Of a DNA stretch of 58,445 bases, positions 3,446 to 57,348 are shown piece after piece. The notes under the pieces are model-generated. The model searched no databases. It had not been told where the DNA came from and saw nothing but the letters and a program-made list of their open reading frames with translations. The first letter of the stretch is position 1; each line of letters starts with the position of its first letter. Both the position numbers and the translations under genes were made by a program. This DNA comes from a virus (taxonomy: Duplodnaviria; Caudoviricetes), in IMG/VR virus record IMGVR_UViG_3300009159_005446, positions 1 to 58,445 of that record. The stretch is one strand, 5' to 3'.

Positions 3446-3478
3446 GATATACATTAAAAACTATTTATGGGACAAATT

Positions 3479-4297: not shown

Positions 4298-4306
4298 GGA
4301 CTCACC

Positions 4307-6173: not shown

Positions 6174-6196
6174 ATAACAGTAATAAGGAAAATATC

Positions 6197-6520: not shown

Positions 6521-6524
6521 TATT

Positions 6525-7241: not shown

Positions 7242-7243
7242 AA

Positions 7244-13319: not shown

Positions 13320-13349
13320 AAAAAGCCACCCTAGGGTGGCTTTGTCTTT
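13320..13349. terminator. Bidirectional intrinsic terminator
   Basis: AAAAGCCACC-ctag-GGTGGCTTT between convergent genes. Confidence 0.8.
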
Positions 13350-13855: not shown

Positions 13856-13856
13856 G

Positions 13857-14396
13857 TTAGAGAGTCTCTCCGCCTACTGTACGGTTACATGCACATAGCT
13901 CACCAGTTTGTAGCGCATCCAATACACGAAGTGTTTCTTCTGGGCTACGACCAACGTTCAAGTTGTTGACAGTAACGTGTTGGATTTCATTGTTTGGATC
14001 AACAATGAATGTGGCACGAAGTGCGGCACCGGCTGGAGCATAGAACACGCCTAGTTGTTCAATCAAGCTCAACTCTCCACGCTGTGTGTCAGCAAACTGG
14101 GTGTGAGTAATCTTCTGTAAATCTCTGTGTGCTTTTTGCCATGCCACTTTACAAAACTCATTGTCTGTTGAACCTGTGAGCAATACAGCATCGCGATCAG
14201 CAAAGTCACTTGCTAACTTATCATAAGCTACAATCTCTGTTGGGCATACGAATGTAAAGTCTTTTGGATAGTAAACAATTACTTTCCATTTGCCTTCGAA
14301 ACTACCTTCTGTGATAGTATAGAAAGCATCTTCAGGTTGTCCTGGCTTAACGCCTGTGATTGCGAATGGGGCTAATTTGTCGCCGACTGTTTTCAT
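13857..14396 (-). CDS. ahpC: Peroxiredoxin AhpC
   Basis: YPKDFTFVCPTE, RATFIVDP, GRSPEETLRVLDALQTGELC. Confidence 0.96.
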   Translation of the reverse strand: MKTVGDKLAPFAITGVKPGQPEDAFYTITEGSFEGKWKVIVYYPKDFTFVCPTEIVAYDKLASDFADRDAVLLTGSTDNEFCKVAWQKAHRDLQKITHTQFADTQRGELSLIEQLGVFYAPAGAALRATFIVDPNNEIQHVTVNNLNVGRSPEETLRVLDALQTGELCACNRTVGGETL

Positions 14397-25532: not shown

Positions 25533-25897
25533 TGGGCCCATACACTATTGATACTATTACTCTTGATTCTGGCAGCTCTCCCACTTATACGGTAACTGGT
25601 GCCACTACGGTTTCGTCGGGAGCAGTCCTCACCAGCAACGGATGGACATCTACTCCTGCGCTAACTGTCAATCAAAGTGGCACAATAGATCTTGAAGGCA
25701 AAAACGCAGATATTCGAGTCAATGGCGAAAGCTTGATGGAAACATTAAGATCTATCCAGGACCGTCTCAACATGCTTCGGCCCAATACCGAACTAGAAGC
25801 TGAATGGGATCAGCTACGTGAACTAGGTGAACAGTACAGAAAACTCGAAGCTGAGTTCAAGGAAAAAAGCAAGATGTGGGATACACTAAAGAAATGA
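25502..25897 (+). CDS. Hypothetical protein
   Basis: Thr-rich N-terminus, C-terminal coiled coil (IQDRLNMLRPN..W..L). Confidence 0.7.
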   Translation: MDITQTTNTMMGPYTIDTITLDSGSSPTYTVTGATTVSSGAVLTSNGWTSTPALTVNQSGTIDLEGKNADIRVNGESLMETLRSIQDRLNMLRPNTELEAEWDQLRELGEQYRKLEAEFKEKSKMWDTLKK

Positions 25898-26691
25898 AAC
25901 CTAAACAAAGAATCAATCACATTGTAAAGTGGCTTCGTGCCTATGCCAAGAGTGCCAAAATTTCCACTTTTGTGGTGGGAATTTCGGGGGGTATTGACTC
26001 ATCAGTTGTGAGCGCATTGTGTGCCGAAACCGGGATCAAAACCATTGTGGTACAAATGCCAATTCGTCAGGCCAAGACATTGGACAATCGCAGTTCATTG
26101 CAAGCTGGCTGGTTGTTGGATCGTTACCGAGAAAACGTCACACACATGAGCATGGATTTGACTCCGGTGTATAGTGCGTTTGAAAAGAAAGTTGGACCAT
26201 TCTGTTCTACAGAACAAGAGCCCAACGAGTCCGAACAACTGGCCTTTGCCAACTCACGTGCTAGACTGCGCATGATGACCCTGTATCAAATTGCACAAAG
26301 CCATGGTGGCATTGTGGTAGGTACAGGCAATCGGGTGGAAGACTTTGGTGTAGGCTTCTTCACCAAGTACGGCGATGGCGGCGTAGATATCAGCCCAATT
26401 GGCGACTGCATGAAAACTGCTGTTTGGGACATGGGCAGAGAATTCGGCTTGCCGCAAGAAATTATTGATGCGGCTCCCACTGATGGATTGTGGGATGATG
26501 GACGTACAGATGAAGGACAACTGGGTATGACTTACCCAGAACTAGAACAAGCCATGTGGCTGGACCAGTCTGGAGATCAGTCTATGACCAGGACCGAAAA
26601 AGACAATCTTAAAAAATATCGAGCAATTCGTACTCGAAATCTACATAAAATGATGCCAATTCCAGTGTGTCAAATGCCCGTTGACCAGTAA
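25894..26691 (+). CDS. nadE: NH3-dependent NAD+ synthetase
   Basis: VGISGGIDSSV, NSRARLRMMTLY, GTGNRVE, FFTKYGDGGVD, APTDGLW, DEGQLGMTY. Confidence 0.95.
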   Translation: MKPKQRINHIVKWLRAYAKSAKISTFVVGISGGIDSSVVSALCAETGIKTIVVQMPIRQAKTLDNRSSLQAGWLLDRYRENVTHMSMDLTPVYSAFEKKVGPFCSTEQEPNESEQLAFANSRARLRMMTLYQIAQSHGGIVVGTGNRVEDFGVGFFTKYGDGGVDISPIGDCMKTAVWDMGREFGLPQEIIDAAPTDGLWDDGRTDEGQLGMTYPELEQAMWLDQSGDQSMTRTEKDNLKKYRAIRTRNLHKMMPIPVCQMPVDQ

Positions 26692-31139: not shown

Positions 31140-31688
31140 ATGGAACTACGTGACCACATCAATCTTGTAGAAGCAAGCACCCGTCCGGCAAAACTGGAAA
31201 CCACCCCTTTACCTTATGGTGTCAAAGACCTTGAACCCATAATGAGTAAAGAAACTATAGACTATCATTTTGAGCATTTGGCCAAAGGTTATGCCAAACG
31301 CTACAATGCAGGAGAAGGCAATGCGGATTTTAATCGTGCTGGCAGTTTTTTACACAATAAGTTTTTCCCTCAGCTTCGGGCTCCCAAGGGCGCCAATAAG
31401 CCCCGAGGTGCAGTACTCGCGCTCATAGAAGAACACTTTGACACCTGGGAAGATTTCAAAGATGCTTTTAAAGAAGCCGCAATGAAAATCCAAGGATCCG
31501 GATGGGTGTATTTGAGCACCGGTGGCGATATCAAGACCATTGCTAACCATGCAGTCCGCACAGACATCTGTGTGTTAGTGGACTGGTGGGAACACGCCTG
31601 GGCTCTAGACTATCAATCAGATAAAGAAAAATATCTAGATAATATTTGGAAAATTATTGACTGGGACGTCTGCAACGAAAGACTCTAA
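31140..31688 (+). CDS. Fe/Mn superoxide dismutase
   Basis: LPYG..LEP.MSKETIDYH, LHNKFF, QGSGW, DWWEHAW; TAAATA at 31129. Confidence 0.9.
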   Translation: MELRDHINLVEASTRPAKLETTPLPYGVKDLEPIMSKETIDYHFEHLAKGYAKRYNAGEGNADFNRAGSFLHNKFFPQLRAPKGANKPRGAVLALIEEHFDTWEDFKDAFKEAAMKIQGSGWVYLSTGGDIKTIANHAVRTDICVLVDWWEHAWALDYQSDKEKYLDNIWKIIDWDVCNERL

Positions 31689-43471: not shown

Positions 43472-44131
43472 ATGCAAATCAAAAGTTTTGGCTGTAGCTT
43501 TATCTACGGCACCGACCTACCTGACGACAAAAAAGCCAGCCGCCCCAGACCCAGTGCCATGACATGGCCAGCACTGCTGGCACAGCGTCTAAAGCTAGAT
43601 TATGCTTGTTATGCCCAGGGCGGGCAGGGCAACACGTTTATCCTGGATCAAATACTATGCGAAGCAGCCAAGCCCACCAGAGACTTGTTTGTAATTGGTT
43701 GGAGCTGGATAGATCGATTTGACTATGTGAACAAACAAGAACTAGACTGGGTGGACTGGAAAGCAATTCGCCCCACAACAGATGATGCTGTGTCCGCCAC
43801 CTACTACAGACACTTGCACAGCCAATATCGAGACAAATTGTCCAGCTTGGTATGTATGCAAAGCGCAATTGATACATTGCAACGCAAAAACATTCCGTTT
43901 ATCATGACTTCTATTGATGACATACTATTTGAACGTCAATGGAACGTGGCCCTGAGCATAGGTGATCTACAGGATTATGTAGAGCCGTATGTGACCAGGT
44001 TTGATGGCACTAACTTTCTTGACTGGAGTCGACAGCAGGGGTTTCCCATTAGTGATACCTGGCACCCGTTAGCGCAAGCACACCAAGCAGCCGCTGATGT
44101 CATGTTGCCCCGGGCTCAGAGCTTGGTGTAA
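43472..44131 (+). CDS. SGNH-hydrolase-like protein
   Basis: FGCSF, GGQGN, GWSWIDR, WHPLAQAH. Confidence 0.65.
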   Translation: MQIKSFGCSFIYGTDLPDDKKASRPRPSAMTWPALLAQRLKLDYACYAQGGQGNTFILDQILCEAAKPTRDLFVIGWSWIDRFDYVNKQELDWVDWKAIRPTTDDAVSATYYRHLHSQYRDKLSSLVCMQSAIDTLQRKNIPFIMTSIDDILFERQWNVALSIGDLQDYVEPYVTRFDGTNFLDWSRQQGFPISDTWHPLAQAHQAAADVMLPRAQSLV

Positions 44132-44850
44132 ACAAAATACAATCGTTCATTTGCATCCTTTTTAAAGGTGTCTAAATGCAGATTGTACTTTTCAGCAAAT
44201 TCATTTACTACTTCAAAAGTCCAATTAAAGATTTCCACATACGGCCCTGTCTTGTGTGTGATTCCGGGATTGGCACGTAAGAAGAACTTACCACCCGGCT
44301 TTAATAAACTAACACAGTGACTAAAACGTGCTTCAATTTCTTCACGATCATTAAAGTTAATTGATCCCAGGGCCATGATAACATCATGTGATTCGGGCTT
44401 GACTTTGTAGTCTAGGATGTCTACTTCATAATCGGCTTGATTGTTGTAGGGATCGATACCTATTAGGTTCTGTATGCGTCCTTTAAAAGGATGATATCCG
44501 CAACCCACATCTAGCACTTTTTCTGGGTTGAGTGCGTTGACTTCTTCAACCAGTTGCCAGCCTGTGTGCTCATAGTCGTTTGTGCGTGGCTTCCAGATCT
44601 CACTAAAGAAACGCAGGATATAACGCTCGCTTAGGTCGTCCACAATACCACGTAGTGTGCCCACATAGTCACTTGGCAATTGCAGTTCAGCTTCTACAGC
44701 ATCTTTAAACTTGCGGTAACGTGCTGGAGTCCAAGGCAAAGAGTCCACAAGTGTATGCGGCCCAATGGTGCTACGAATTTGCTCGTATTTGGGTAAATTA
44801 AAAGCACGAAGCAAATTTTCGTGCACTAGGTTAAAAATTTTGGTGTTCAT
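44116..44850 (-). CDS. Class I SAM-dependent methyltransferase with ACP-like N-terminal domain
   Basis: VLDVGCG, GIDP, LLKPGG; N-terminal ~75 aa has carrier-protein-like helix spacing. Confidence 0.8.
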   Translation of the reverse strand: MNTKIFNLVHENLLRAFNLPKYEQIRSTIGPHTLVDSLPWTPARYRKFKDAVEAELQLPSDYVGTLRGIVDDLSERYILRFFSEIWKPRTNDYEHTGWQLVEEVNALNPEKVLDVGCGYHPFKGRIQNLIGIDPYNNQADYEVDILDYKVKPESHDVIMALGSINFNDREEIEARFSHCVSLLKPGGKFFLRANPGITHKTGPYVEIFNWTFEVVNEFAEKYNLHLDTFKKDANERLYFVYTKL

Positions 44851-44943
44851 AAAAAAATTTCTTTGAGGTAAATAAAATTTACAAGAGTACTAGAAAATTT
44901 CCTGGTACGCTTGTTTTCTGTTAAGTATATTTAAGGAGATAAC

Positions 44944-45642
44944 ATGCTTACATCAAAAGATTTCGTCGCCAAATTGGTTGCTGATAATCAAGCCCTTTTC
45001 AAAGCCAGCCAACACAATGTTCGTGCTTATTTTGAATCAAAACCAGCTCAAGCAGAGCTAGTGGAACACTTTATCGGCCGCATGGTCAACGAGCGTATGA
45101 ATATGGTTGAAATCAGCCGTGCCATTGCTGACATGCCTGCTGATGCAGATCCAGTTGAGTTGCAGTTGTTAACACAACAAGCACACGACGAAGCTGTGCA
45201 TTTCCGCTTGGTCAAGGAAGTTATTGAACACATTCAAGGTAGCCCAGTTGATGTTGCTGCCGCAATTGCTCGCGAAGCGGCCAAGCCCACTGCCAAAGGT
45301 GCTGGTTTATTGGCCAAGTACAGTGCTGAAACTGATCCTGCTGCCTTGGCTGCTTATCAGTTGGTTGCTGAAGGCCGTGCAGAAGCTGTGTGGGACGAAA
45401 TGGCTGATTGCATTGAAGACACGTTTATCTCTGGCGCATATCGCAAGATTGCCAAGGACGAAGGCTTTCACGCCAAAATTGGTGCTCGTGCACTAGAGAA
45501 GTTTGTGGGCACTGAAGAAGAGCAAGAGCGTATTGAAAGCCTGGTACAAGCCATGCGTCGTGACTTGTATGACATTTCATGCCGAAACACAGTTGCTGCC
45601 GAGTCAGGCCGTGAACTGGTAGCTGACGCATACGGTTGGTAA
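44944..45642 (+). CDS. Ferritin-like diiron-carboxylate protein
   Basis: NERMN..HDEAVH..AEGRA..KDEGFH (two E...ExxH pairs); AAGGAG RBS; TAAATA at 44869. Confidence 0.82.
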   Translation: MLTSKDFVAKLVADNQALFKASQHNVRAYFESKPAQAELVEHFIGRMVNERMNMVEISRAIADMPADADPVELQLLTQQAHDEAVHFRLVKEVIEHIQGSPVDVAAAIAREAAKPTAKGAGLLAKYSAETDPAALAAYQLVAEGRAEAVWDEMADCIEDTFISGAYRKIAKDEGFHAKIGARALEKFVGTEEEQERIESLVQAMRRDLYDISCRNTVAAESGRELVADAYGW

Positions 45643-45643
45643 T

Positions 45644-46204
45644 TTGCTAATAGGATTAAGTCAAAGAATCCTATGGCATCGCACACGAGCGTATGATGCA
45701 CTTGAACATGGATGGTATTCATATTTGAGACAACACACGCTCGTGCCCATAGCGAACGATCCCGAGCAGGATTTCAAAGCAATTGCTCAAGCACTAGATG
45801 CGTTTGTTATCACCGGAGGTGATGACAGTATCATACGCAGAACAACAGAAATTAAACTTGCAAAACTCATGATGTTGCTAGACAAGCCGGTTTTGGGCGT
45901 TTGTCATGGCGCATTTATGTTAACGGATTTACTGGGAGGTAGTGTGGTGGCCGCTGTTGGTGATCACTCAGAAACACTGCATCCTGTAATGTACTTTGGG
46001 GAAGAGGTTGTGGTCAATAGCTTTCATAACTTGGCTATTCAACGATTGCACTCCTCAGGTACTGTGCTGTGTACTGACTCTGACGGACATGTTGAGTCCT
46101 GGATTGATGGTACACTAGCGGGGGTGGTCTGGCACCCCGAACGCATGGATAGTCCATGGATTCCAGATGAAATAGAAAATTTACTTTTTAAGGAAACAAA
46201 ATGA
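45644..46204 (+). CDS. Class I glutamine amidotransferase / peptidase C26
   Basis: ITGGDD, LGVCHG, VNSFH, WHPE. Confidence 0.88.
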   Translation: MLIGLSQRILWHRTRAYDALEHGWYSYLRQHTLVPIANDPEQDFKAIAQALDAFVITGGDDSIIRRTTEIKLAKLMMLLDKPVLGVCHGAFMLTDLLGGSVVAAVGDHSETLHPVMYFGEEVVVNSFHNLAIQRLHSSGTVLCTDSDGHVESWIDGTLAGVVWHPERMDSPWIPDEIENLLFKETK

Positions 46205-47181
46205 AACGTTTATTAGCACTATTGCTTGTTACCGCAAGCACACTAGTCCACGCATGGGAGCCTACAAAGCCCGTTACTGTGTTTGTGGGTAATACTCCCG
46301 GTGCAGGAAATGAAATTGCTTTTAGAAAACTAGCAGATATTGTACAGAAACAAAATCCAAAGTTTGTGTATGTTGTACAAAACATTCCCGGAGCTGATTC
46401 AACGATTGCAAACAATAGATTCTTAACTGAGCCCAACGATGGTTATACCATTAACTTGCCCAGTCACATGAGTTCTTATGTGACAAATGATATCTGGGAA
46501 AAGAAAATTAAAAAGTACAATTACGACACATTTGTTGATGTATTGACCATGGGCAAAAGCCCACTTGTACTAGTGGCTGGTGCAAAAAGTCAAGTTGAAA
46601 CTCCAGTTGATTTTATTAGATATATTCACACATCCACAAAGCCGATTAATATCGCCGTGGGCGGCGGCGCACACCGTACAGCTTATGAATATCTAATAGA
46701 ATCAGCACACGGTGATCGTAATCTTATTAAGCCTATTAGATTTAACGGGCCTGCTCCAGCAGTACAAAGTGTTGCCAGCTTTGATCCCAAGCTAGGCGGA
46801 ACAGAATTTGGTATCATGCCCATTGCTGTTGCCCGTCCACTAGTAGAAGCAGGTAAAGTACGGGCAATTGGATTTACAGGCACACGCACAATGCCACAAT
46901 TCCCCAACGTTCCACTATTAAATTCAGTGGCACCGGGTATTAACGTATATGCCGCTTGGAGCATTCAGTTGCCGCCAGGCACAGATAAAGAAATTGTAGC
47001 ATGGTACCAAAAGAATTTCTCGGCTGCAGTCAAGAGCAAAGAATACGCACAGTGGCGAGATATCAATGTGGTATTCTACGTAGAGGATGAGTTAACTCCA
47101 GCTGGACTTAAGAAACAAATGGACAATTTACGTGCTACCTTTTTGCCGGTACTGAGTAAAATTGATTTAAGTAAAGAATGA
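46201..47181 (+). CDS. Bug/TctC tripartite tricarboxylate transporter substrate-binding protein
   Basis: Signal peptide; WEPTKPVTVFV..PGAG, VQNIPGA, PNDGYTI, GKVRAIG, FPNVP, PPGTDKEIV. Confidence 0.88.
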   Translation: MKRLLALLLVTASTLVHAWEPTKPVTVFVGNTPGAGNEIAFRKLADIVQKQNPKFVYVVQNIPGADSTIANNRFLTEPNDGYTINLPSHMSSYVTNDIWEKKIKKYNYDTFVDVLTMGKSPLVLVAGAKSQVETPVDFIRYIHTSTKPINIAVGGGAHRTAYEYLIESAHGDRNLIKPIRFNGPAPAVQSVASFDPKLGGTEFGIMPIAVARPLVEAGKVRAIGFTGTRTMPQFPNVPLLNSVAPGINVYAAWSIQLPPGTDKEIVAWYQKNFSAAVKSKEYAQWRDINVVFYVEDELTPAGLKKQMDNLRATFLPVLSKIDLSKE

Positions 47182-47807
47182 AATATATCTTTGTAGCCGG
47201 TGCTCCAGGCTCAAAATGGAGCAGTGTAGTTAAAAACATCTACTATAGTCCCAGCGTTGATCGTTCGGACTATAGAGATGAATGGACTTATTATCATGAC
47301 GCATCGGGCAAAATGGAACTCATGCACCTGGGTGCGTACTTTGACCCAGGTATGGCGTCGCCCTTGCCCGAGGATTTGACCACGTTGAATCGGCAGCAAC
47401 TAGAAGAAATATTTGCTGAGCCATTTCAATTTAAAGAATCTCCGGGTGTACGCATTATCAAAAGCCATGTGTTCTCAAATCACATTGACTATTTGCGAGA
47501 ATTATTCCCCGAAACACCCATTGTGATTGTGCATCGCAATGATGATGCATGCCTGGGTTGGTGGGTCAAATGCGGTCATTTTGATATAACATATCCTGAT
47601 TATCATGAGTATTTTCGAGACTTAAAGAACATGGCACAGATCATTCGGAGTCAGAATAAAGACATATTGGCCGCATGGTGGAAATACAATGATAAGCCTG
47701 TAATGGACAACAATCTACGACTGGCTGCGGCCCTGGGCATAGATGCACCTCCCGCAGAATACACACAAGAATACGCAGTAAACGACATAAGGGTAAAAGT
47801 AATATGA
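47178..47807 (+). CDS. Sulfotransferase-like/P-loop protein
   Basis: FVAGAPGSKWS, IIKSH, FPETPIVIVHR. Confidence 0.5.
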   Translation: MKYIFVAGAPGSKWSSVVKNIYYSPSVDRSDYRDEWTYYHDASGKMELMHLGAYFDPGMASPLPEDLTTLNRQQLEEIFAEPFQFKESPGVRIIKSHVFSNHIDYLRELFPETPIVIVHRNDDACLGWWVKCGHFDITYPDYHEYFRDLKNMAQIIRSQNKDILAAWWKYNDKPVMDNNLRLAAALGIDAPPAEYTQEYAVNDIRVKVI

Positions 47808-48469
47808 TAACAGACGAATTTAAAAGCAGTTGGGATTTCACCAAAAGCACCAGCACATACCATTTTGATAGTAAAAGACTGGATCGGTTTGAAGATGTTG
47901 TTGCACATCTAGGACACATTGAACCCACATGGCTGGCAGATGTAGACAACATTGTTGCTGACAGCAAGCCTGCAACCTGGGAAACACGTGGCTATAAAGG
48001 CGAAGGAGTGTTGCCCCCACGTGAGGATCTAGTAGCAGAAGAATATGATCTTGAGCGTGTGGGTGCAGATCCCAAAATGATTATTACTCATTTGAATTGG
48101 AACATGCCCGAGTCGCTTAAAAAGATTTCCAAGCAGTTTGCGCTAGATGACTGCATGGAACGTATTCATGTGCAACAGCCCGGGGAAGTGTGGAATCTAC
48201 ACATGGACAAACTACAGAAATGGAATCCCGAAGATCCCAGTCGTATAATGCGTATCTTTATACAATTGACTGATTGGCAACCGGGGCAGTTCTGGGAATA
48301 TGGTAATCATCACTGGAATCAATGGCGTGCTGGGGATGTGTCAACATTTGACTGGGCCAACATGCCGCACTCAACAGCCAATGCTGGACATCATGCCCGA
48401 GTAACACTACAGCTCACAGGTGTAATCTCTGATCGCACACAAGAATTCCTAGCTAACTTGCCAAGATGA
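47804..48469 (+). CDS. Fe(II)/2-oxoglutarate dioxygenase (AspH-like DSBH)
   Basis: PGEVWNLHMD (HxD), PHSTANAG (distal His), RVTLQLTG. Confidence 0.75.
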   Translation: MITDEFKSSWDFTKSTSTYHFDSKRLDRFEDVVAHLGHIEPTWLADVDNIVADSKPATWETRGYKGEGVLPPREDLVAEEYDLERVGADPKMIITHLNWNMPESLKKISKQFALDDCMERIHVQQPGEVWNLHMDKLQKWNPEDPSRIMRIFIQLTDWQPGQFWEYGNHHWNQWRAGDVSTFDWANMPHSTANAGHHARVTLQLTGVISDRTQEFLANLPR

Positions 48470-49092
48470 AAACACTGTTAATCATTACAGGGCCGCAAGG
48501 TTCGGGTAATCATTTATGGAGCAAGATCTTTGCACAGCATCCTGATGTGTATGGCTGGCATGCCTTATTGCATGAATACTGGATAGGGCATGATCAAGAA
48601 CCCTTTGCAGCCTGCTGGGAGAACCCCGATCTGCTAAAGGATTTTAACTGGGGCGAGTGCAAATACTTTGTAACCGGTGTCAGCACACCTTACATGCTCA
48701 ACGGTGAGCGTACTGTGCCCAACATTGTGCGTTTTGCTGCCACAGCCATGGGCCTGGGCATACAGGTAAAGATTGCCATTATCGGGCGTGATCGTAACGT
48801 ATTAAACTATCAAGAGACTCGTGTGCGTGGTGATGCCACATATGATATTGCGTTAAAAGAATATGAGAAGTTACGCACATGGAGCCCGGTATTTTTAAGT
48901 TACGAATTACTGCATCTTTATGGCAATCTTTATCTACAACAAATTGCCAATCAATTGGAATTTCCCATTGATTATTCCGGTCCCCAACTGGCAAATATTT
49001 TAACAGATGATACCAACAGTAAATATTTCAAACCCGTGCACCATCATCCCACAGATGATCTAGCACGACACACTTCAAGGAAATGGCGATGA
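48466..49092 (+). CDS. Sulfotransferase-like/P-loop protein
   Basis: IITGPQGSGNHLWSKIFAQHPDV, IIGRD, FLSYELL. Confidence 0.55.
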   Translation: MKTLLIITGPQGSGNHLWSKIFAQHPDVYGWHALLHEYWIGHDQEPFAACWENPDLLKDFNWGECKYFVTGVSTPYMLNGERTVPNIVRFAATAMGLGIQVKIAIIGRDRNVLNYQETRVRGDATYDIALKEYEKLRTWSPVFLSYELLHLYGNLYLQQIANQLEFPIDYSGPQLANILTDDTNSKYFKPVHHHPTDDLARHTSRKWR

Positions 49093-49886
49093 CAGCACAA
49101 CGTATATTAATCATGGGCTTGCCTGGCGCAGGCAAAACTTATCTAGCACAGCACATACTAGAACATTTACAAGCAGAGCGCAAACGTGTGCGTTGGCTCA
49201 ATGCTGACGATGTGCGTAAAGAATACAATGACTGGGACTTCTCAGAAGCCGGACGTATTCGGCAGAGCATGCGTATGCGTACACTAGCAGATTCATTTAG
49301 TGACGTGGATTATGTGATCTGCGACTTTGTTGCACCGCTAGTGGAAATGCGCAACAACTTCAAAGCAGATTGGACCGTGTGGGTTGACACAATTGACCGG
49401 GGTCGATTTGAAGATACCAACCGGGCGTTTGTTGCCCCTGAAGTATATGACTTCCGCATCACTGAACAAAACGGTGAGAAATGGGGCGAGTTCATTGCCG
49501 CACACATACTAGATAACAGACGTAGACCAACTTTTGATTGGCAACAAGAAACTGTGCAAATGTTGGGTCGCTGGCAGCCTTGGCATGCCGGTCACCGTGC
49601 GTTATTTGAACGAGCCATAGCCAAAACTGGGCAAGTTTGTATAATGATCCGGGATTGTCAAGGCTGGCAGGGATCCAACCCTTTTGCTATAGAACAAGTT
49701 AAATCATTTATTCGTCGAGACCTAGACATGTTGTATCAAGGACAGTATGAAATACAAGTTGTGCCCAATATTGTCAACATCACATATGGTCGAGATGTTG
49801 GTTACCAAATCGAACAAGAATCATTTGATTCTGCAATAACAGACATTTCAGCTACTAAAATTCGAAAAGACATGGGCTTGAAATAA
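49089..49886 (+). CDS. cysC: Adenylylsulfate-kinase-like domain fused to HIGH-motif nucleotidyltransferase
   Basis: GLPGAGKT, LNADDVR, DFSEAGRIRQ, FVAP; C-terminal GRWQPWHAGH..NPF. Confidence 0.8.
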   Translation: MTAQRILIMGLPGAGKTYLAQHILEHLQAERKRVRWLNADDVRKEYNDWDFSEAGRIRQSMRMRTLADSFSDVDYVICDFVAPLVEMRNNFKADWTVWVDTIDRGRFEDTNRAFVAPEVYDFRITEQNGEKWGEFIAAHILDNRRRPTFDWQQETVQMLGRWQPWHAGHRALFERAIAKTGQVCIMIRDCQGWQGSNPFAIEQVKSFIRRDLDMLYQGQYEIQVVPNIVNITYGRDVGYQIEQESFDSAITDISATKIRKDMGLK

Positions 49887-50777
49887 ATGCCGCATATCCC
49901 GTATCATATTCGAGTTTGGGGGCGCGGCATTGGTCAAGCAACAGAGTCTGGCATGGATGCATATGATCGATGCGGCCCCGAAGCCACAGAACATTTTCGA
50001 AATTACCCTTGGCCCATTGAGTACAATTTCAACTCTAGAGGATTTCGAGACACTGAATGGCCACGAGATTTTAACGAATTAAAATCAGCAATATGGTGCG
50101 TGGGCGACAGTTTTACACTGGGCATTGGCTCGCCTAGACAGCACACTTGGCCGTATCAACTGGGAGAATTAACTGGTAGTAGAGTAATGAATTGCAGTAT
50201 GGACGGTGCTAGTAATGAATGGATCAGTGATTTAGCCGTTAATATACTAGATGCATTTGATCCTCCCAACATGGTAATAATGTGGAGTTACACCCATCGT
50301 CGAGCAGGAATTGGCCAAAAAACCCCAAACAAAATAGTATACGACCGTGTACCACAGTGGAAAATCACATATGATGACATGCGCGAAATATTCTGGCCTA
50401 GGTGCAATACTCTAGCACAGTTCAATGCTTTGCCAATAGAGATCAAACAGCGAGTATTGGATAAAATTGGTGAAGACCAATTTCAAAATGATCTCACTGC
50501 ACGAATGCACTATGTTAGATCAACCGATCAAGATGATCTAGAAAACCTTAAACAATGCATTGAATGTGTGCAAAAATATCAGCGACAACATATTGTGCAT
50601 GCCGCAATACCACAATTTGCCCCCGAGCACATGATGTTAGCAAGTCATGCTATTATTGAGCAACAACCACAGTGGATTCCACAATTTCAAAATTTAGATC
50701 TTGCCCGCGACAGTCATCACTTTGATATCAAGACGTCAAAGTGGGTAGCTGAGCAGGTGCAACCGCTGTTGTTGTAA
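49887..50777 (+). CDS. SGNH-hydrolase-like protein
   Basis: YNFNSRGFR, VGDSFTLGIG, NCSMDGASN, WSYTHRR, ARDSHHF. Confidence 0.65.
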   Translation: MPHIPYHIRVWGRGIGQATESGMDAYDRCGPEATEHFRNYPWPIEYNFNSRGFRDTEWPRDFNELKSAIWCVGDSFTLGIGSPRQHTWPYQLGELTGSRVMNCSMDGASNEWISDLAVNILDAFDPPNMVIMWSYTHRRAGIGQKTPNKIVYDRVPQWKITYDDMREIFWPRCNTLAQFNALPIEIKQRVLDKIGEDQFQNDLTARMHYVRSTDQDDLENLKQCIECVQKYQRQHIVHAAIPQFAPEHMMLASHAIIEQQPQWIPQFQNLDLARDSHHFDIKTSKWVAEQVQPLLL

Positions 50778-51891
50778 GCGCCAGTTCAGGATCCCAAGCG
50801 CGATATTCTTGTTGTGCTCGGCTTTGTAAATCATCCATGCTCAAGGGCTGGGCAATGTCAGAGTTGCCTTGCGCCCAGTTATTGTAAGCATCAAGACATT
50901 CTTGAATATTTCGAATCATAAACATTTTTTCAGCTAGAGTTTGTTTTTTGATTGGTATTGTTGTGGGCAAAATCCCCAGCTCTTGCATGCGGTCAATGCT
51001 TTCCCGTGCTTGCACATACTTTTCTTGGTGCTGTTGCAGGTATTCTTGATGCACCCGTGGCAGGTAATCTCTAACAGTGGCAGGTGCCAATGCAGTTGTG
51101 CTGGTCAGCTGTTGCTGTGTTAGTTGCAACATCTGCTGGGGCGTTTGCATAGCCAATGCTCCAATGTCACTGTTTAAATAATGACAGCGATTCCAGTCTG
51201 CAAACTCTTGGCCAAATGTTTGATTCCAGGTTATTCGTTCAGGCTGGCCAGCAAATACTGGAAGATCTAGTATAAAACGTTCAATATTGGGCAAGTCTTG
51301 TTCATAATGAAAATATGTTCCTATAGAGAAATGATCTTCGCTCCACTTGATATAGTCTCGATATCTTTGCAAATGACTCAACAATTGCTCTGGGGGTATC
51401 TTGGTCTTGGAACTGTAAAGACTAAAAAAGGTATTGATTTTTTCTTGTGCGCTGTAAACATTCAATCGTTTGGTAATACCATTGATACTCCAGCTCAAGG
51501 CATGCTCAAAAAGATTTTGTCTGCGGCAACTGATTACATAAAAATTATCATCGAGATATCGATAAAATGGCACTTGATCCGCAATGGAGTCCTGGCGCTG
51601 GCGCATGTGATAGTGTGCGACCCTGGCAGTTTTATAGTGATCCACTGTGGCCAATAATTCAGTGACCTCGGGCAGACTTTGATAATAGCTGTCACTGGAT
51701 TTGGCATTGACCCATTGTTTTCTCAACAGTTCACGATTGAATTCAGGATTGAAGTACTTGCCAATACCATTTGTGAGTTCATGTAGGTTAATCACCGGAC
51801 GATCAAATTGGTGCAACTGCATGTACACTGTTAAAATGCGTTGTAGCAAGGTGCTACCCACTGCGTCTGGTGTTAGAATTAAAACGTTCAT
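50728..51891 (-). CDS. Sulfotransferase-like (Stf0-type) protein
   Basis: LTPDAVGSTLL, LHEL, RRQNLFEHALSW, YEQD. Confidence 0.55.
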   Translation of the reverse strand: MNVLILTPDAVGSTLLQRILTVYMQLHQFDRPVINLHELTNGIGKYFNPEFNRELLRKQWVNAKSSDSYYQSLPEVTELLATVDHYKTARVAHYHMRQRQDSIADQVPFYRYLDDNFYVISCRRQNLFEHALSWSINGITKRLNVYSAQEKINTFFSLYSSKTKIPPEQLLSHLQRYRDYIKWSEDHFSIGTYFHYEQDLPNIERFILDLPVFAGQPERITWNQTFGQEFADWNRCHYLNSDIGALAMQTPQQMLQLTQQQLTSTTALAPATVRDYLPRVHQEYLQQHQEKYVQARESIDRMQELGILPTTIPIKKQTLAEKMFMIRNIQECLDAYNNWAQGNSDIAQPLSMDDLQSRAQQEYRAWDPELALTTTAVAPAQLPTLTS

Positions 51892-51937
51892 ATGGGTATT
51901 TACTAAATATTTTTAACTTGGTATATTATTAAATCAC

Positions 51938-52987
51938 ATGAACAAAATAATTAACAGCCACACCAACTGGGGGCGACTGCAGGAAGTATGGCTAGGCGAT
52001 GTTTATCCTGCTTCTTGGTACGATCATTTACAGTCAGATGTGCGTGATTGTTTCCATGAACTGACTGAAAACACTCAACAAGATCTTGCTATAATTCAGC
52101 GCCGTCTTGAAGAGTTTGGTGTGCGTGTGCGTAGACCCGAATATACCCGGATTGAAGATTACATGCGTGGCGATTTTCTAATCAAACCACACATAACTCC
52201 CCGGGATGATTTTGTTGTTGTGGGCAATACTCTTTATGGCCTGCAAAAGACCACATCGCCTTGGCAGCACATTCTAGATGAATATCAAGCTGCTGGGGAG
52301 GATGTACAGTATCGCATGATCAACGGTCCTCTCAATATAAATGGTTCCAATGTGGTGCGTGTGGGGCGGGACATATATATTGATCTCATGTGGGAAGCTC
52401 GTGCCCTGGGGTCAGAAGACATTTTGACCAATAGATTCCACAATGTGTTTGCAAATCAATTCAGAGATTATCGAGTTCATTTGGTGTTTAATGGGGGACA
52501 TATTGACGGATGTTTTGCTGTGCTCAAACCCGATGTGCTGATAGCCAGCAAATACTTTGAAAACTACGATGAAACTTTTCCAGGTTGGACAAAAATCAAC
52601 ACCAGCCTGCCAGAATTTCACAATCACACTCCCAATTTGACTGATGTGCCCAACTTTCTCAAATGGCATGTGCCCGGTGCCAATAATCGTGCATTTAATC
52701 AGCACGTGATAGATCATGCCATGACATGGGTGGGCAACTATACCGAAACATATTTTGAAATAAATTGTCTAGTAATTGACGAAAAGAATGTCATGGTCAT
52801 GGGCGAACATCCAGCCGTGTTTCGTGAGCTTGAACAACATGGAATTACTGCACACTCAGTACCGTTTAGAACCCGTACATTCTGGGATGGCGGTGTGCAT
52901 TGCTTGACCTTGGACATACGCAGAGATGACACCCCTGTAGACCTATTCCCCGCTCGCGGCGACCCCGGAATCACTATACTCCGATAA
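51938..52987 (+). CDS. Amidinotransferase (pentein; glycine/inosamine amidinotransferase-like), copy 1
   Basis: NSHTNWGRLQEVWLG, TPRDD, GHIDG, INCLVID, GGVHCLTLDIRR. Confidence 0.88.
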   Translation: MNKIINSHTNWGRLQEVWLGDVYPASWYDHLQSDVRDCFHELTENTQQDLAIIQRRLEEFGVRVRRPEYTRIEDYMRGDFLIKPHITPRDDFVVVGNTLYGLQKTTSPWQHILDEYQAAGEDVQYRMINGPLNINGSNVVRVGRDIYIDLMWEARALGSEDILTNRFHNVFANQFRDYRVHLVFNGGHIDGCFAVLKPDVLIASKYFENYDETFPGWTKINTSLPEFHNHTPNLTDVPNFLKWHVPGANNRAFNQHVIDHAMTWVGNYTETYFEINCLVIDEKNVMVMGEHPAVFRELEQHGITAHSVPFRTRTFWDGGVHCLTLDIRRDDTPVDLFPARGDPGITILR

Positions 52988-53004
52988 TTGGGTTAAATAA
53001 CAAC

Positions 53005-53472
53005 ATGTGGATCTTGCACTTTTTACCGGACGCTTTTATAACCTGGTTTGCCAACCTGGTACTACTGGCAGGCGTGGCATTGACTGTGATGGGCTTGTTT
53101 GTTCATAGGCTGCCCATTCCTGTTTTGTACCAGTACCAGTTGATGTTTAAACTACTGGGCATTGTGGTGCTATGTGCCGGCGTGTATCTTCGTGGTGGCG
53201 TGGCAGTAGAACAGGCCTGGCGTGATCGAGTGGCCGAAGTAGAAGCAAGATTAAAACAAGCAGAAGAAATTTCACAGCGTGAAAACACACGTATAGAAGC
53301 CCAAGTGGTCACACGAACTCGTACTGTACGAGAGCGAGCTCAGGAGATTGTGAAGTACGTGGATCGAGAAATCGTCAAGTACGACACAAAGTTTGCGCCC
53401 GGCGGCATTTGTGAAATACCACAGGAATTTATAACAGCACACAATCGTGCGGCAGAGGTACCAGCAAAATGA
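53005..53472 (+). CDS. Inner-membrane spanin (Rz-like)
   Basis: N-terminal TMs, coiled coil, VKYVDRE..CEIP..HNRAA; TAAATA at 52994. Confidence 0.7.
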   Translation: MWILHFLPDAFITWFANLVLLAGVALTVMGLFVHRLPIPVLYQYQLMFKLLGIVVLCAGVYLRGGVAVEQAWRDRVAEVEARLKQAEEISQRENTRIEAQVVTRTRTVRERAQEIVKYVDREIVKYDTKFAPGGICEIPQEFITAHNRAAEVPAK

Positions 53473-54194
53473 GAGCAAATGAAATCTTCACTGAAGCATG
53501 GAGTCAAAAATACAAAAACAGTATCAACTGCAGCCATCCCAAAGGGTTTAGCCAGCGAGCACACTGTGCAGGCAAAAACAAACACAACGAATCAATTGAA
53601 ATGGAAATGGTGTGTGAAGACTGTGGCATGTGCCAAACACACGGAAATCTCAGCGAGATCAAGAAGGGTGCAAAAGATGCAAATGGTTACACACGTTGCT
53701 GGCCAGGCAAGCATGCCGAAGGCACTAAAACGGGCAAAAACGGCGGACAAGTCCGTAACTGTGTGCCAAACGAAAGCGCAGAATTAACACAAGAGTTTGA
53801 TCTAATAGAAAATATCATTGAAGGTATTGCGGCACAGAATGGTGTAGATGCTGAAGCAGTATGGGCGGATTTAGAGTCGCTGACAGAAGATGAGCTGTAT
53901 GCGTTTGCCGTAACTTCGCAACTGAACGAAGACTGGCAAAAGGCCAACAAGCGCGACAAAACAGATAGCATGAGTCAAAAGGCTGTGAACTCTTATCGCA
54001 GAGAGCATCCGGGATCAAAACTAAAGACTGCCGTGACCACTAAGCCTAGCAAATTAAAAAAGGGCTCTAAAGCCTCCAAGCGACGCAAAAGCTATTGCTC
54101 ACGCTCACGTGGCCAAATGAAAATGCACAGTATCTCATGTGCTAAAACTCCCGACAAGGCCATTTGCAAAGCCCGTAGACGTTGGAACTGCTGA
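53469..54194 (+). CDS. Modular Cys/Lys-rich putative virion (head) protein
   Basis: EAWSQKYKNSINCSHPKGFSQRAHC, CWPG..VRNCVP, RRKSYCSRS..RRWNC modules. Confidence 0.7.
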   Translation: MRANEIFTEAWSQKYKNSINCSHPKGFSQRAHCAGKNKHNESIEMEMVCEDCGMCQTHGNLSEIKKGAKDANGYTRCWPGKHAEGTKTGKNGGQVRNCVPNESAELTQEFDLIENIIEGIAAQNGVDAEAVWADLESLTEDELYAFAVTSQLNEDWQKANKRDKTDSMSQKAVNSYRREHPGSKLKTAVTTKPSKLKKGSKASKRRKSYCSRSRGQMKMHSISCAKTPDKAICKARRRWNC

Positions 54195-54460
54195 TGAAAT
54201 ACCTGCTGACAATCGTTTTGCTATTATCGGGATGTTCCACTGTGGTGCCTGTTACTGCTAAATTTCCCGACCCACCGGGCAAGGGCGCACTAGTACGTTG
54301 CCCCAACTTGCAACAGCTACAAAACGATGCAAAATTAAGTGACATAGCCCGCACAATCACAGTCAACTACAGCACCTACTATGAGTGCGCAATCCGAGCA
54401 GATGCCTGGCAGGAATGGTATCAAGTACAAAAACACATATTCGATCAAGCTTCAAAATAA
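54194..54460 (+). CDS. Outer-membrane spanin lipoprotein (Rz1-like)
   Basis: Lipobox LLLSGC; Pro-rich FPDPP..CPNL; NYSTYYEC..WQEWY. Confidence 0.78.
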   Translation: MKYLLTIVLLLSGCSTVVPVTAKFPDPPGKGALVRCPNLQQLQNDAKLSDIARTITVNYSTYYECAIRADAWQEWYQVQKHIFDQASK

Positions 54461-54479
54461 TTAACTAGGACTTTAACGC

Positions 54480-55637
54480 ATGACCTCACCCTTAATCAAC
54501 AGCTATACCAACTGGAGTCCGCTTCAAGAGGTATGGCTAGGAGATGTTTACCCTGCTTCATGGTACGATCATTTACAACGTGAAGTGCGTGATTGTTTTT
54601 ACGAGCTGACTGAAAATACCAAACATGATCTAAACATCATACAACAAAAACTTCAAGAGTTTGGCGTAGAAGTTGTTAGACCACAATATGACAAAATTGA
54701 AAACTATATTGATGGATATGGTAATCTAGTCAAGCCACAAATTACTCCACGAGACAATTTCTTGGTTTATGGCAACAAATTCATACTACAACAAGGCGTG
54801 GCCTGGCGGTACGATGACAATGTAACTGATATCACTCACTCCTGGGAACATGCCTTGACAAGGTATCGCAATGATCCTGGCAGTGAAGTTGTATCAGCAT
54901 CATTGCCCTTGGCCATGGGAATCATATCCGGTGCCAACACAGTCCGAGTGGGTCGAGACATTTACCTTGACGTGTGGATAAACAACTGGGCTGAGGCCAG
55001 AAAAGAAAACTATCAAAAACATATTGCTCCGTTATTTCCTAACAGTCGAGTGCATTTGCTCAGTAATGGTGGTCATATCGATGGGTGTTTTGCTGTTATC
55101 AAACCTGGTGTGTTGTTAACTGACAGATATTTTTCTGATTATGAAAACACGTTCCCGGGGTGGGCAAGAATTGAAATACAAAGTCCGGAATTTGAAAATC
55201 ATGTAGCACCAGACAGTTTAGATAGTATGCGCCAGCCCAGGGCCAATCCTAGAAAATTCTTTTTAACCGGCCCCCCACAAGAATCAGTACGCAACCCACG
55301 TGCAGTTAATGTGCCAGAAATAGATAAATCATCATTGTCACATGCATTTAATGAATATGTGATTGCCCATGCGCTGGACTGGGTAGGGGATTACACTGAA
55401 ACATTCTTTGAAGTAAACTGCCTGGTCATAGATGAAAAGAATGTGCTTATTCTAGGCGAGAATGAAAACGTAGTACGTGCGCTTGAACAACATGGGGTTA
55501 CCGCACACTCGGTTCCGTTTAGAACACGCAGTTTTTGGGACGGTGGACTACACTGTCTCACACTGGACATACGCAGAGATGATACCCTTGTAGACCTATT
55601 TCCCGAGCGAGATCAACAACTGTACCAATACTACTAA
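54480..55637 (+). CDS. Amidinotransferase (pentein), copy 2
   Basis: NSYTNWSPLQEVWLG, TPRDN, GHIDG, VNCLVID, GGLHCLTLDIRR. Confidence 0.88.
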   Translation: MTSPLINSYTNWSPLQEVWLGDVYPASWYDHLQREVRDCFYELTENTKHDLNIIQQKLQEFGVEVVRPQYDKIENYIDGYGNLVKPQITPRDNFLVYGNKFILQQGVAWRYDDNVTDITHSWEHALTRYRNDPGSEVVSASLPLAMGIISGANTVRVGRDIYLDVWINNWAEARKENYQKHIAPLFPNSRVHLLSNGGHIDGCFAVIKPGVLLTDRYFSDYENTFPGWARIEIQSPEFENHVAPDSLDSMRQPRANPRKFFLTGPPQESVRNPRAVNVPEIDKSSLSHAFNEYVIAHALDWVGDYTETFFEVNCLVIDEKNVLILGENENVVRALEQHGVTAHSVPFRTRSFWDGGLHCLTLDIRRDDTLVDLFPERDQQLYQYY

Positions 55638-56285: not shown

Positions 56286-56402
56286 ATGTTAGAAACACTA
56301 TTTTGGTTGGCATTGGGCGCATTTGTTGGATGGAATTTTCCACAACCCGACTTTGCAAAACGCATACAGGCCCGCGTCATGGCCGCATTTCGAAAGGATT
56401 AA
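56286..56402 (+). CDS. Small membrane peptide, 38 aa (MLETLFWLALGAFVGWNFPQPDFAKRIQARVMAAFRKD)
   Basis: Manual translation; AGGAG RBS; fills the gap between endolysin and carbonic anhydrase. Confidence 0.7.
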   Translation: MLETLFWLALGAFVGWNFPQPDFAKRIQARVMAAFRKD

Positions 56403-56406
56403 CAAA

Positions 56407-57348
56407 ATGACAAAGACGAATTTTTTAGCAACAATTATTTTGGCCATGGCACCCTTGGTGTCCATGAGTCAAAGTCAAACACCAATTAATATCACAGCAG
56501 TTACACCACAAGGTAGCCCTGCTCAATTTACCAATTACAGTGGATTGAACGCTACATTTACTTTTCAAACACAAAATACATTAAATAGTCCATTCTGTAA
56601 CACTGGTGCAGGCGATGTTTGCACCTTGCCAACTGCCACAGCCGGTGTGAACGCATACCCTATTGCTAACACACGCTGGGGCACATACAAACTCAACAAT
56701 CCCAATGCAGGCTCATGTGCTCCGACATTGTCATTTGGCGGTGCTCAATACTGCTTGTTGGAGTTCCACTTTCATGGACCAGCAGAACACTGGGTCAACA
56801 ACTCAGTGACTGATCTAGAAGTACACTTTGTTTATTTTAAACTGGCTGATTTGACTGGTCCTTATGGATTGTGCAATGCAGATAGTCTCCTGGTATTGGG
56901 TCAACGCATGGTTGGCAATGGCAACACACCAAATGCAGCCTGGGCTAGTGTGTTTAACGCAATACCGGCTGCCAATGCTAGTGGAGCAAATTCAGGTAGT
57001 ACTGTTAGCTTTAATATTGCAAGCATGATGGGCATGGCCAACTTCAATACAGCACCAAGCTATAGATACAGTGGCGGATTAACAGCACCAATTTCCATTG
57101 GTACACTGGGTGCCAACAGTACCTGTGTGGCAACTACTAACCCTGCCAACAGTCGTCCATGGTGGGGCAATCCACAGCGTCAACTAACTCAACAAGCATA
57201 TCCACAAATTGTGTCTTGGGTACTTTTTAGACAACCAATACAATTGTCTGTAGCACAAGTACAACAATTTAAAACTGTATTTCCTGATGGCAATGCCCGT
57301 GCTGTGCAGCCACAGGGTGCTACAGTTTATATTGCCAATCCAAATTGA
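56407..57348 (+). CDS. Secreted alpha-carbonic anhydrase
   Basis: Signal peptide; QTPINI, EFHFHGPAEH, LEVHFV (three Zn His), YRYSGGLTAP, VSWVLFRQPI, NARAVQP. Confidence 0.85.
   Translation: MTKTNFLATIILAMAPLVSMSQSQTPINITAVTPQGSPAQFTNYSGLNATFTFQTQNTLNSPFCNTGAGDVCTLPTATAGVNAYPIANTRWGTYKLNNPNAGSCAPTLSFGGAQYCLLEFHFHGPAEHWVNNSVTDLEVHFVYFKLADLTGPYGLCNADSLLVLGQRMVGNGNTPNAAWASVFNAIPAANASGANSGSTVSFNIASMMGMANFNTAPSYRYSGGLTAPISIGTLGANSTCVATTNPANSRPWWGNPQRQLTQQAYPQIVSWVLFRQPIQLSVAQVQQFKTVFPDGNARAVQPQGATVYIANPN

Follow-up and report, generated by a model that had tools for sequence, protein, structure and literature searches.

A transporter-linked gene cassette of large freshwater phages that may hydroxylate, sulfate and methylate a small molecule

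In rhizobia, the sulfotransferase NodH is served by NodP and NodQ, which supply the sulfate donor 3'-phosphoadenosine 5'-phosphosulfate (PAPS). The Cj1415-1418 enzymes of Campylobacter jejuni make a PAPS-like donor, cytidine diphosphate (CDP)-phosphoramidate 3'-phosphate, according to the available part of PMC11800397, and a similar phosphoramidate reading is given for Borg elements in the available part of bioRxiv 2024.11.05.622173. With regard to phages, the accessible text of PMC10580990 leaves the role of their sulfotransferases unexplained, that of PMC10914622 treats freshwater phage cysC as a gene of sulfate assimilation and mentions sulfotransferases 0 times, and that of a paper on boreal jumbophages (PMC13573597) makes no mention of sulfur or transporters. 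In the open-access and bioRxiv literature we found no description of a phage cassette such as the one reported here, which lies in a 58,445-base stretch of viral DNA (IMG/VR virus record IMGVR_UViG_3300009159_005446; CheckV completeness 13%), hereafter the window, and whose core encodes an exported solute-binding protein (TctC), two sulfotransferase-fold proteins (ST1 and ST2), an oxygenase (2OG) and a methyltransferase (MT).

We hold with moderate confidence that this transporter-linked cassette supplies its own PAPS and modifies a small molecule by hydroxylation, sulfation and methylation. The exported TctC would capture a carboxylate-type solute in the host periplasm and pass it to a TctA-type permease, which would be the host's here and phage-encoded in other lineages. 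In the cytoplasm, the Fe(II)/2-oxoglutarate dioxygenase would hydroxylate the compound, ST1 and ST2 (with a third candidate, ST3, where present) would transfer sulfate to it from PAPS, and the S-adenosylmethionine (SAM) methyltransferase would methylate it. A kinase–nucleotidyltransferase fusion protein, KinNT, would supply PAPS through its N-terminal adenosine 5'-phosphosulfate (APS) kinase, while its HxGH half may use ATP and sulfate to form APS or have some other role, and two accessory gene pairs (Ferr/GAT and SGNH/Stf0-like) would contribute optional extra tailoring steps. The PAPS donor, the order of the steps, the direction of transport and the small-molecule target are the parts of this scheme that we infer; what the analysis shows are the assignments to families and folds, the conservation of linkage, the fused genes and the sulfation settings of KinNT in bacteria. 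An earlier interpretation made from the letters alone (the sequence-only reading) had proposed a self-contained, late-expressed pathway that included amidino transfer and was directed preferentially at the virion or a surface; the tailoring pathway itself, with its sulfotransferase-fold proteins, Fe/2OG oxygenase, methyltransferase, kinase fusion and binding protein, stood up to analysis, but amidino transfer, late timing and the surface target did not. The genes concerned are the following, with positions given in the window and ORF denoting an open reading frame:

43472..44131, plus strand: SGNHa, SGNH-hydrolase-like, accessory (the ORF opens with TTG at 43400; its first ATG is at 43472)
44116..44850, minus strand: MT, divergent class I SAM-methyltransferase-like protein, core
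44944..45642, plus strand: Ferr, ferritin-like diiron protein, accessory, paired with GAT
45644..46204, plus strand: GAT, class I glutamine amidotransferase / peptidase C26 (gamma-glutamyl hydrolase type), accessory
46201..47181, plus strand: TctC, exported solute-binding protein of the tripartite-tricarboxylate-transporter type, core
47178..47807, plus strand: ST1, sulfotransferase-family protein, core
47804..48469, plus strand: 2OG, predicted Fe(II)/2-oxoglutarate dioxygenase, core
48466..49092, plus strand: ST2, second protein with a predicted sulfotransferase fold, core
49083..49886, plus strand: KinNT, fusion of an APS-kinase-like domain and an HxGH nucleotidyltransferase, frequent add-on
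49887..50777, plus strand: SGNHb, SGNH/GDSL-type hydrolase-like, accessory, paired with ST3
50728..51891, minus strand: ST3, convergent Stf0-like sulfotransferase candidate, accessory
51938..52987, plus strand: AT1, amidinotransferase homologue, a neighbour outside the conserved cassette
54480..55637, plus strand: AT2, AT1 paralogue within the lysis module, outside the conserved cassette

Every ORF named in the sequence-only reading was found where it had been placed, and the plus-strand genes between 44944 and 50777 do abut or overlap. By ORF coordinates, the end of Ferr and the start of GAT are 1 nt apart, each of the TctC/ST1/2OG/ST2 junctions is a 4-nt overlap, ST2 and KinNT overlap by 10 nt, the gap from KinNT to SGNHb is 0, and the convergent SGNHb and ST3 overlap by 50 nt.

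To gauge conservation we used 80 viral loci (contigs of up to 524 kb) baited with TctC, which is present in 80/80 by construction; the tblastn counts that follow are lower bounds, as many contigs stop inside the region. MT was found in 77 loci, ST1 in 75, 2OG in 66, ST2 in 52 and KinNT in 33, with a recurrent order of MT (divergent), TctC, ST1, 2OG, ST2 and, where present, KinNT. This unit occupies at least five genomic contexts: between PhoH/virion and lysis genes, between PhoH and virion genes, and beside genes for ribonucleotide reductase and glutaredoxin, for an endonuclease and a family-B polymerase, or for a metallophosphatase. The core is thus a real, conserved unit whose gene order is kept in relatives beyond chance, and the objection that its genes are not syntenic elsewhere, which the sequence-only reading had raised against itself, fails. 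The remaining genes are found in fewer loci (SGNHa 24, Ferr 21, GAT 20, SGNHb 12, ST3 10). Ferr–GAT forms an insert that separates MT from TctC, and SGNHb–ST3 always lies downstream of KinNT, which is present in 10/10 loci with ST3. Both the Ferr/GAT and the SGNH/Stf0-like pairs, earlier counted within the core, are optional modules.

Two relatives can be described separately. One 42.9-kb contig (L084; NZ_JBBAKG010000049.1), binned in a Haliscomenobacter metagenome-assembled genome, is a phage contig of the same clade with the full cassette, and its binning may be a host lead or an artefact. The other (L124, record G017; 157,623 bases, 98% complete) has a rearranged cassette in which ST2 and MT lie on the minus strand, followed by 2OG, a 279-aa P-loop protein, an SSF symporter, KinNT split into ORFs of 153 aa and 117 aa, ST1, MT and ST1.

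Gene fusions, a link absent from the sequence-only reading, are the strongest evidence that the core enzymes act together. A search for longer relatives of ST1 returned 6 proteins. P0273 is a fusion of ST1 and 2OG (identity 52% and 67%; 12 member sequences) that forms an unbroken 433-aa ORF in locus L095, and its junction is also covered in L096, which comes from a different sample. P0274, P0276, P0277 and P0278 are fusions of ST1 and MT. P0133 joins ST2 to the catalytic half of MT (44% identity); it is a single protein record from one contig, and this contig was not found among viral or metagenome contigs. A further protein, P0275, consists of ST1 with a Gly/Ser/Thr-rich tail of ~650 residues.

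ST1 matches Pfam Sulfotransfer_3 at 29.5 bits, above the cut-off of 27, and residues K13, R92, K95, S96, H97, R120 and D123 are invariant in 34 sequences; among the matches listed, 12/120 ST1 relatives carry PF13469. The family comprises 4368 clusters in metagenomes. Among 50,697 records of isolated phages there were two weak matches only, the marine virus that encodes a weak ST1 relative resembles cyanophages and lacks the cassette, and the only homologues in bacterial genome contigs were that on the Haliscomenobacter-binned phage-like contig and one 18-residue match. ST2 has no Pfam match and no PDB sequence match, it is not significantly similar to ST1 by hhalign, and a profile search of 1.84 billion representatives gave only 248 matches, the fusion P0133 among them. 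Because ST2 and the oxygenase lacked such sequence matches, both were modelled from alignments of their phage homologues. The ST2 model (pLDDT 91.6) had sulfotransferases as its best Foldseek matches (6e-5), and by VIA it matched CurM ST (Z 12.2, rmsd 3.1, 167 aligned) and TPST (Z 11.2-11.9), with kinase-type proteins reaching at most Z 9.8; the model predicts that ST2 is a protein of sulfotransferase fold. The P-loop proteins are therefore related to sulfotransferases, ST1 by Pfam and ST2 by modelled structure, and the proviso of the sequence-only reading that they might prove unrelated falls away. By eye, R108, D109 and Q116 are invariant in the ST2 alignment, as is Q11, which follows a conserved Pro in the N-terminal loop; sulfotransferases have Lys or Arg at the position matching Q11.

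The oxygenase has no Pfam match, and a PDB profile search returned nothing significant. Its model (pLDDT 88) matched proline cis-4-hydroxylase in Foldseek (7e-7) and proline 3-hydroxylase by VIA (Z 13.4, rmsd 2.7, 143 aligned), and H133-x-D135...H189...R199 is invariant in 35 sequences. With the modelled fold, the His-x-Asp...His triad and the 2OG-binding Arg all present, the protein is by prediction an Fe(II)/2-oxoglutarate dioxygenase, and the presence of free-proline hydroxylases among its nearest structures supports a small-molecule target. MT matches Methyltransf_25 at E 3.7e-4, which is below the Pfam cut-off, and a PDB profile search gave nothing significant; its mean column identity is 81%.

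The N-terminal half of KinNT (about residues 1-150) matches APS_kinase (PF01583) at 44.1 bits, with a cut-off of 21.1, and residues 8-94 align to the APS kinase 2yvu (2.8e-6) and to PAPSS1, with the P-loop and downstream motifs aligned. The C-terminal half (about 155-267) contains an HxGH motif and is closest in the PDB to the NMNAT 2qjt (1.4e-5), with a weak match to CTP_transf_like and no Sat (PF01747) or CysD (PF01507) Pfam match at E up to 0.01. The same fusion is found in Xylella phage Sano and its relatives and in Stenotrophomonas phage DLP_6. In bacteria, KinNT homologues are tied to sulfotransferases in two ways. P0279 of Rhizobium sp. BK376, named an adenylylsulfate kinase-like enzyme by NCBI, carries Sulfotransfer_2 at 21-231 (31.3 bits, cut-off 22) and, after it, a complete KinNT with 43% identity over both halves. 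A megaplasmid of Microvirga lotononidis encodes a free-standing KinNT homologue, which shares ~38% identity with the phage proteins across its two halves, in a row of genes for NodA, a deacetylase, GT2, ABC and ABC-2 proteins (together NodA/B/C/I/J-like), Sulfotransfer_3/1, KinNT, PAPS_reduct (CysD/NodP-like) and GTP_EFTU+DUF2061 (CysN/NodQ-like). Rhizobial NodQ carries an APS kinase as its C-terminal domain; in the Microvirga CysN/NodQ-like protein no such domain is seen, leaving KinNT as the row's sole member of the APS-kinase family. Judging from these bacterial contexts, the kinase half of KinNT very probably makes PAPS for a sulfotransferase.

As to the source of APS, an ATP sulfurylase of known family was found in 0/5 relatives, four of them 95-100% complete, and PAPS_reduct above its cut-off likewise in 0/5; without a Sat-type or supra-threshold CysD-type gene in these relatives, APS would have to come from the host or from the KinNT domain. 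The domain order of KinNT, which is that of the metazoan PAPS synthase, makes a compact ATP sulfurylase an attractive candidate.

Several further observations touch on KinNT. A DUF2061 mini-gene follows it in several phage loci (cluster c46; L061:13257-13505), and the Microvirga CysN/NodQ-like protein (L094:11181-12770) has DUF2061 where the APS-kinase domain would be expected, 36-47% identical to the phage mini-gene. In Sano, gp33-gp35 (L002:5966-7735) form a row of a 195-aa protein with a sub-threshold match to Sulfotransfer_4 (E 4e-4), a NADAR gene and KinNT, which may be an independent association of KinNT with a sulfotransferase in small siphophages; hhalign of ST1 or ST2 against gp33 was not significant, and a single-sequence PDB search with gp33 gave nothing significant. 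P0280-P0282 (659-672 aa) are fusions of APS-kinase-like domains to HMGL-like domains. The APS-kinase-like gene of Ralstonia phage RSL1 adjoins sugar-nucleotidyltransferase-like genes and is uninformative.

The cassette's link to transport rests on the binding protein and on what takes its place in other lineages. TctC matches PF03401 at 69 bits and binding proteins of tripartite tricarboxylate transporters in the PDB down to 2.4e-11, and its hydrophobic N-terminus, judged by eye to be an export signal, is conserved; it was found in 0/50,697 records of isolated phages. With the ST1+2OG fusion as bait we obtained 44 loci, 37 of them new, in 29 of which the surroundings of ST1 are visible. TctC is present in 16 of these, TctA with an exported protein of ~350 aa in 11, an SSF symporter in 1, and no transporter in 1 (L095). 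The TctA matches have E values of 1e-95 to 2e-83 in 4/5 records, and the SSF match 7.6e-28; the 353-aa exported partner of TctA is weakly TctC-like (hhalign probability 26%, E 7e-4) and gave a Pfam TctC match in 0/5 records. Five near-complete relatives (G001, G002, G003, G011 and G012, with loci L020, L027, L066, L080 and L077) have 2-5 TctC-family proteins each, and TctA was found in 0/5 of those with an orphan TctC, which must therefore use a host permease. The pathway is coherent, but its description as self-contained is unsupported, as no ATP sulfurylase of a known family and no TctA turned up in the five relatives searched for each. Three different transport solutions in one enzyme set favour a transported small molecule, and it was on this account that we set aside the earlier preference for a virion or surface target. 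In some loci a DctP binding protein, of the tripartite ATP-independent periplasmic (TRAP) type, is added. Genes for proteins of 396 aa (L020:14699-15889; cluster c34, 12 members, no Pfam match) and 426 aa (L120:3481-4761) adjoin binding-protein genes, and both proteins have an S-x-G-x-D-S stretch resembling the PP-loop ATP-pyrophosphatase motif.

A number of findings weigh against a small-molecule pathway with its own PAPS supply. With regard to transport, L095 has the enzymes and no transporter of any kind, and the 2-5 TctC genes per phage mean that the binding proteins may be general nutrient-uptake genes. With regard to KinNT, the protein occurs in isolated phages without a recognisable ST1 or TctC; it is optional, being encoded well away from the cassette in two complete relatives and reduced to its kinase half in a third; and it is missing from a 100% complete relative with a minimal MT-TctC-ST1 set. 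Its nucleotidyltransferase half is nearest to NMNAT by sequence and, given the CysD/CysN-type ATP sulfurylase beside the Microvirga homologue, need not be a sulfurylase. With regard to the sulfotransferases, PDB sequence profile searches with ST1 and with ST2 returned nothing significant, and the Gln of ST2 at a position that is otherwise basic means that this protein may have no catalytic role or may draw on a different donor. ST3 has no Pfam or PDB sequence match, nothing significant came from a single-sequence PDB search with it, and its Stf0/Sulfotransfer_3 clusters (scores 0.95-0.96) come from an Atlas feature search that yields language-model leads only. Moreover, the 80 loci all belong to relatives of one phage group, so that their synteny partly reflects shared descent, and no RNA run matching the window was among the matches listed.

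Some of the same evidence bears on the target, and here an alternative reading, which we consider unlikely, is that the enzymes sulfate, hydroxylate and methylate a macromolecule (a glycan or lipid of the host envelope, a protein of host or phage, or a peptide), for example against superinfection or to decorate the virion, with TctC an unrelated uptake gene. The protein sulfotransferases TPST are among the top structural matches of ST2, and protein-acting prolyl hydroxylases (prolyl-4-hydroxylases and PHD2) score Z 11.4-12.6 with the oxygenase, near the free-proline enzymes. The bacterial context of KinNT is sulfation of a Nod-factor-type glycolipid, SGNH and Stf0-like genes typically serve in glycan tailoring, and virion and lysis genes adjoin the cassette in many loci; the lack of a transporter in L095 would also fit. 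Against this stand the transporters of three families that are embedded in 28/29 informative loci, and we saw no glycosyltransferase, flippase or peptide precursor in the cassette. The late-promoter argument, which had tied the cassette to virion or surface modification in the sequence-only reading, fails as well: TAAATA occurs at 44869, 51897 (minus strand) and 51904, none of these is a full T4-type late box, and the hexamer is at chance level in the window (32 copies vs 38.2 expected), so that late expression is unsupported because TAAATA is not enriched. Sigma-70-like sites (34 vs 32.6) and terminator-like sites (16 vs 14.5) in the window were likewise at the level of shuffles.

A second alternative, and a very unlikely one in our estimation, retains the fold of the sulfotransferase-like proteins and changes their donor, such that they use a 3'-phosphonucleotide other than PAPS, for example 3'-phospho-CDP-amidate, or only bind nucleotides. 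This reading draws on GAT, whose best NCBIfam match is gamma-glutamyl-CDP-amidate hydrolase (Cj1417-type; E 8e-17). Both Peptidase_C26 (58.3 bits) and GATase (41.3 bits) match this protein above their cut-offs, and the Cys-His-Glu triad, seen as the Cys of G-V-C-H-G and an H-P-E stretch, is conserved in 19 homologues. The logic of a kinase joined to a nucleotidyltransferase would fit such a donor, as would the Gln of ST2. The NCBIfam score, however, is 61.9 bits, a quarter of the cut-off of 250. GAT and KinNT also do not co-vary: KinNT accompanies GAT in 9 of the 20 GAT loci and is absent from 8, the other 3 being truncated, whereas 24/33 KinNT loci lack GAT, which pairs instead with Ferr. PPDK_N and PEP-utilizer, the domains of the glutamine kinase Cj1418, were found above cut-off in 0/5 GAT-bearing relatives, one of them 98% complete. 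Finally, the KinNT nucleotidyltransferase is of the HxGH/NMNAT-like type, and its bacterial partners are ordinary sulfotransferases and CysD/CysN. On the score, the lack of co-variation, the lack of PPDK_N and the contexts of KinNT, we disfavour a phosphoramidate (O-methyl phosphoramidate-like) pathway. Least probable of all, we believe, is that these are separate auxiliary metabolic genes lying side by side by shared descent, with KinNT a cysC-type or NAD-salvage enzyme and TctC serving carbon uptake: the NMNAT-like half of KinNT, the NAD synthase of the window, the ability of KinNT to lie elsewhere, the many other metabolic and transport genes of the phage and the treatment of freshwater phage cysC as sulfate assimilation in the available text of PMC10914622 would fit, but ST1 is found fused both with the oxygenase and with MT, ST2 with MT and KinNT with a sulfotransferase, the cassette stays intact over its several contexts, and a PAPS reductase above cut-off was seen in none of the five relatives searched.

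If the cassette does act on a transported small molecule, as we favour, it offers a testable case in which giant lake phages would reprogramme host chemistry through a sulfated small molecule, with a candidate route to PAPS, and it links two themes, that of phage sulfotransferases and that of phage cysC. We put forward more tentatively, as possible yet somewhat unlikely in its entirety, a broader version: that thousands of freshwater phages carry an import-hydroxylate-sulfate-methylate pathway converting a common dissolved carboxylate to a new sulfated metabolite in the course of infection, that the NMNAT-like half of KinNT is a sulfurylase of ~110 residues joined to a trimmed APS kinase, which would make KinNT the smallest PAPS synthase, and that the 'cysC' of large lake phages signifies sulfation and not the assimilation of sulfur.

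The accessory genes are less well defined. Ferr matches PaaA_PaaC (5.2e-4) and Rubrerythrin (6e-3), both below cut-off, and has two conserved E..H pairs; its Atlas leads are ferritin-like, AurF and RNR-like clusters. SGNHa has no Pfam match, and by eye its 19 homologues conserve G-C-S-F, G..GN and D..H blocks. SGNHb matches NCBIfam GDSL_LA_2486 (1.6e-3) and Lipase_GDSL_2 (0.026) below thresholds, with GDS, SN and D..H blocks seen by eye. AT1 matches the PDB amidinotransferases AGAT (1.9e-9, residues 270-332), StrB1 (7e-6), HsvA (1e-5) and SxtG (2e-3) within residues 262-332, a stretch in the C-terminal catalytic region; in Pfam, the amidinotransferases reach ADI only at E 0.17 and 0.058. AT2 is 52% identical to AT1 (E 1e-130), belongs to phrog_25854 and is flanked by spanin-like, DUF6321 and endolysin genes. 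Each amidinotransferase was found in 2 of the 80 loci, and both lie with the lysis module, whose spanin-like and DUF6321 genes they bracket; we regard them as unrelated neighbours, and amidino transfer is unsupported as a part of the pathway.

Around the cassette the window encodes PhoH, two virion structural proteins (PHROGs), a spanin-like protein, an endolysin and a holin (Pfam/PHROGs), and elsewhere ClpP, a family-3 binding protein, a sodium:dicarboxylate symporter, an Asp/Glu racemase, AhpC, superoxide dismutase (SOD), NAD synthase and a carbonic-anhydrase-like protein. From this mixture of metabolic and virion genes, the window is a piece of a very large phage genome in which metabolic genes abound. 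No tRNA genes were found in it, and megablast of the cassette region against isolated phages gave no match. Near-identical DNA is present in 24 DNA runs from freshwater, lake and river metagenomes; 2 runs contain at least 0.9 of the sampled words of the window, and 5 further runs 0.28-0.46. At 3467-7924, genes for a family-3 solute-binding protein, the SDF sodium:dicarboxylate symporter, a lectin-like protein and the Asp/Glu racemase lie in series, a second uptake-plus-enzyme group of the same phage. Genes of the carboxymuconolactone-decarboxylase family and for AhpC, NAD synthase, Fe/Mn superoxide dismutase and ClpP (13349-14396, 25876-26691, 31140-31688 and 1626-2219) add up to a breadth of redox and housekeeping functions that is unusual for a phage fragment. 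The carbonic-anhydrase-like gene (56323-57348), of eukaryotic type (PF00194, 57.6 bits), lies between the endolysin and holin genes and occurs in 4/80 relatives.

Set beside the described systems, the cassette resembles each in part. The Cj1415-Cj1418 system, as far as the available text describes it, shares with the phage a C26-type hydrolase, an APS-kinase-like 3'-kinase and a nucleotidyltransferase, but the phage protein scores far below the cut-off, no glutamine kinase was found, and GAT and KinNT do not go together. The viral cysC genes of PMC10914622 are, in its available text, likewise APS-kinase-family genes of large freshwater phages; in the present phages the kinase forms a fusion with a nucleotidyltransferase, in linkage with genes for sulfotransferase-fold proteins. 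Bifunctional PAPS synthases (metazoan PAPSS1/2; Sat-APS kinase fusions) have the same arrangement of an APS kinase first and a nucleotidyltransferase-superfamily domain second, and PAPSS1 is among the PDB matches of KinNT; the C-terminal half of KinNT, however, has ~110 residues, is closest to NMNAT and has no PF01747/CysD match. TctCBA/Bug systems share the Pfam TctC protein with its N-terminal export signal (by eye), and some phage lineages add TctA, whereas the phage TctC is an orphan without TctA in the near-complete relatives, and no TctB was noticed, although no search was aimed at it. Nod-factor sulfation is alike in having a dedicated sulfotransferase clustered with sulfate-activation genes and a transporter, but the phage cassette lacks chitin-oligomer genes and CysD/CysN and has instead 2-3 unrelated sulfotransferase-fold proteins, an oxygenase, a methyltransferase and an uptake protein. 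The parts of the cassette thus come from known families, and rhizobia already provide examples of dedicated sulfation modules that bring their own supply of PAPS; what is new is the phage setting, the coupling to uptake, the fused hydroxylase-sulfotransferase-methyltransferase trio and the fusion of a kinase to an NMNAT-like domain.

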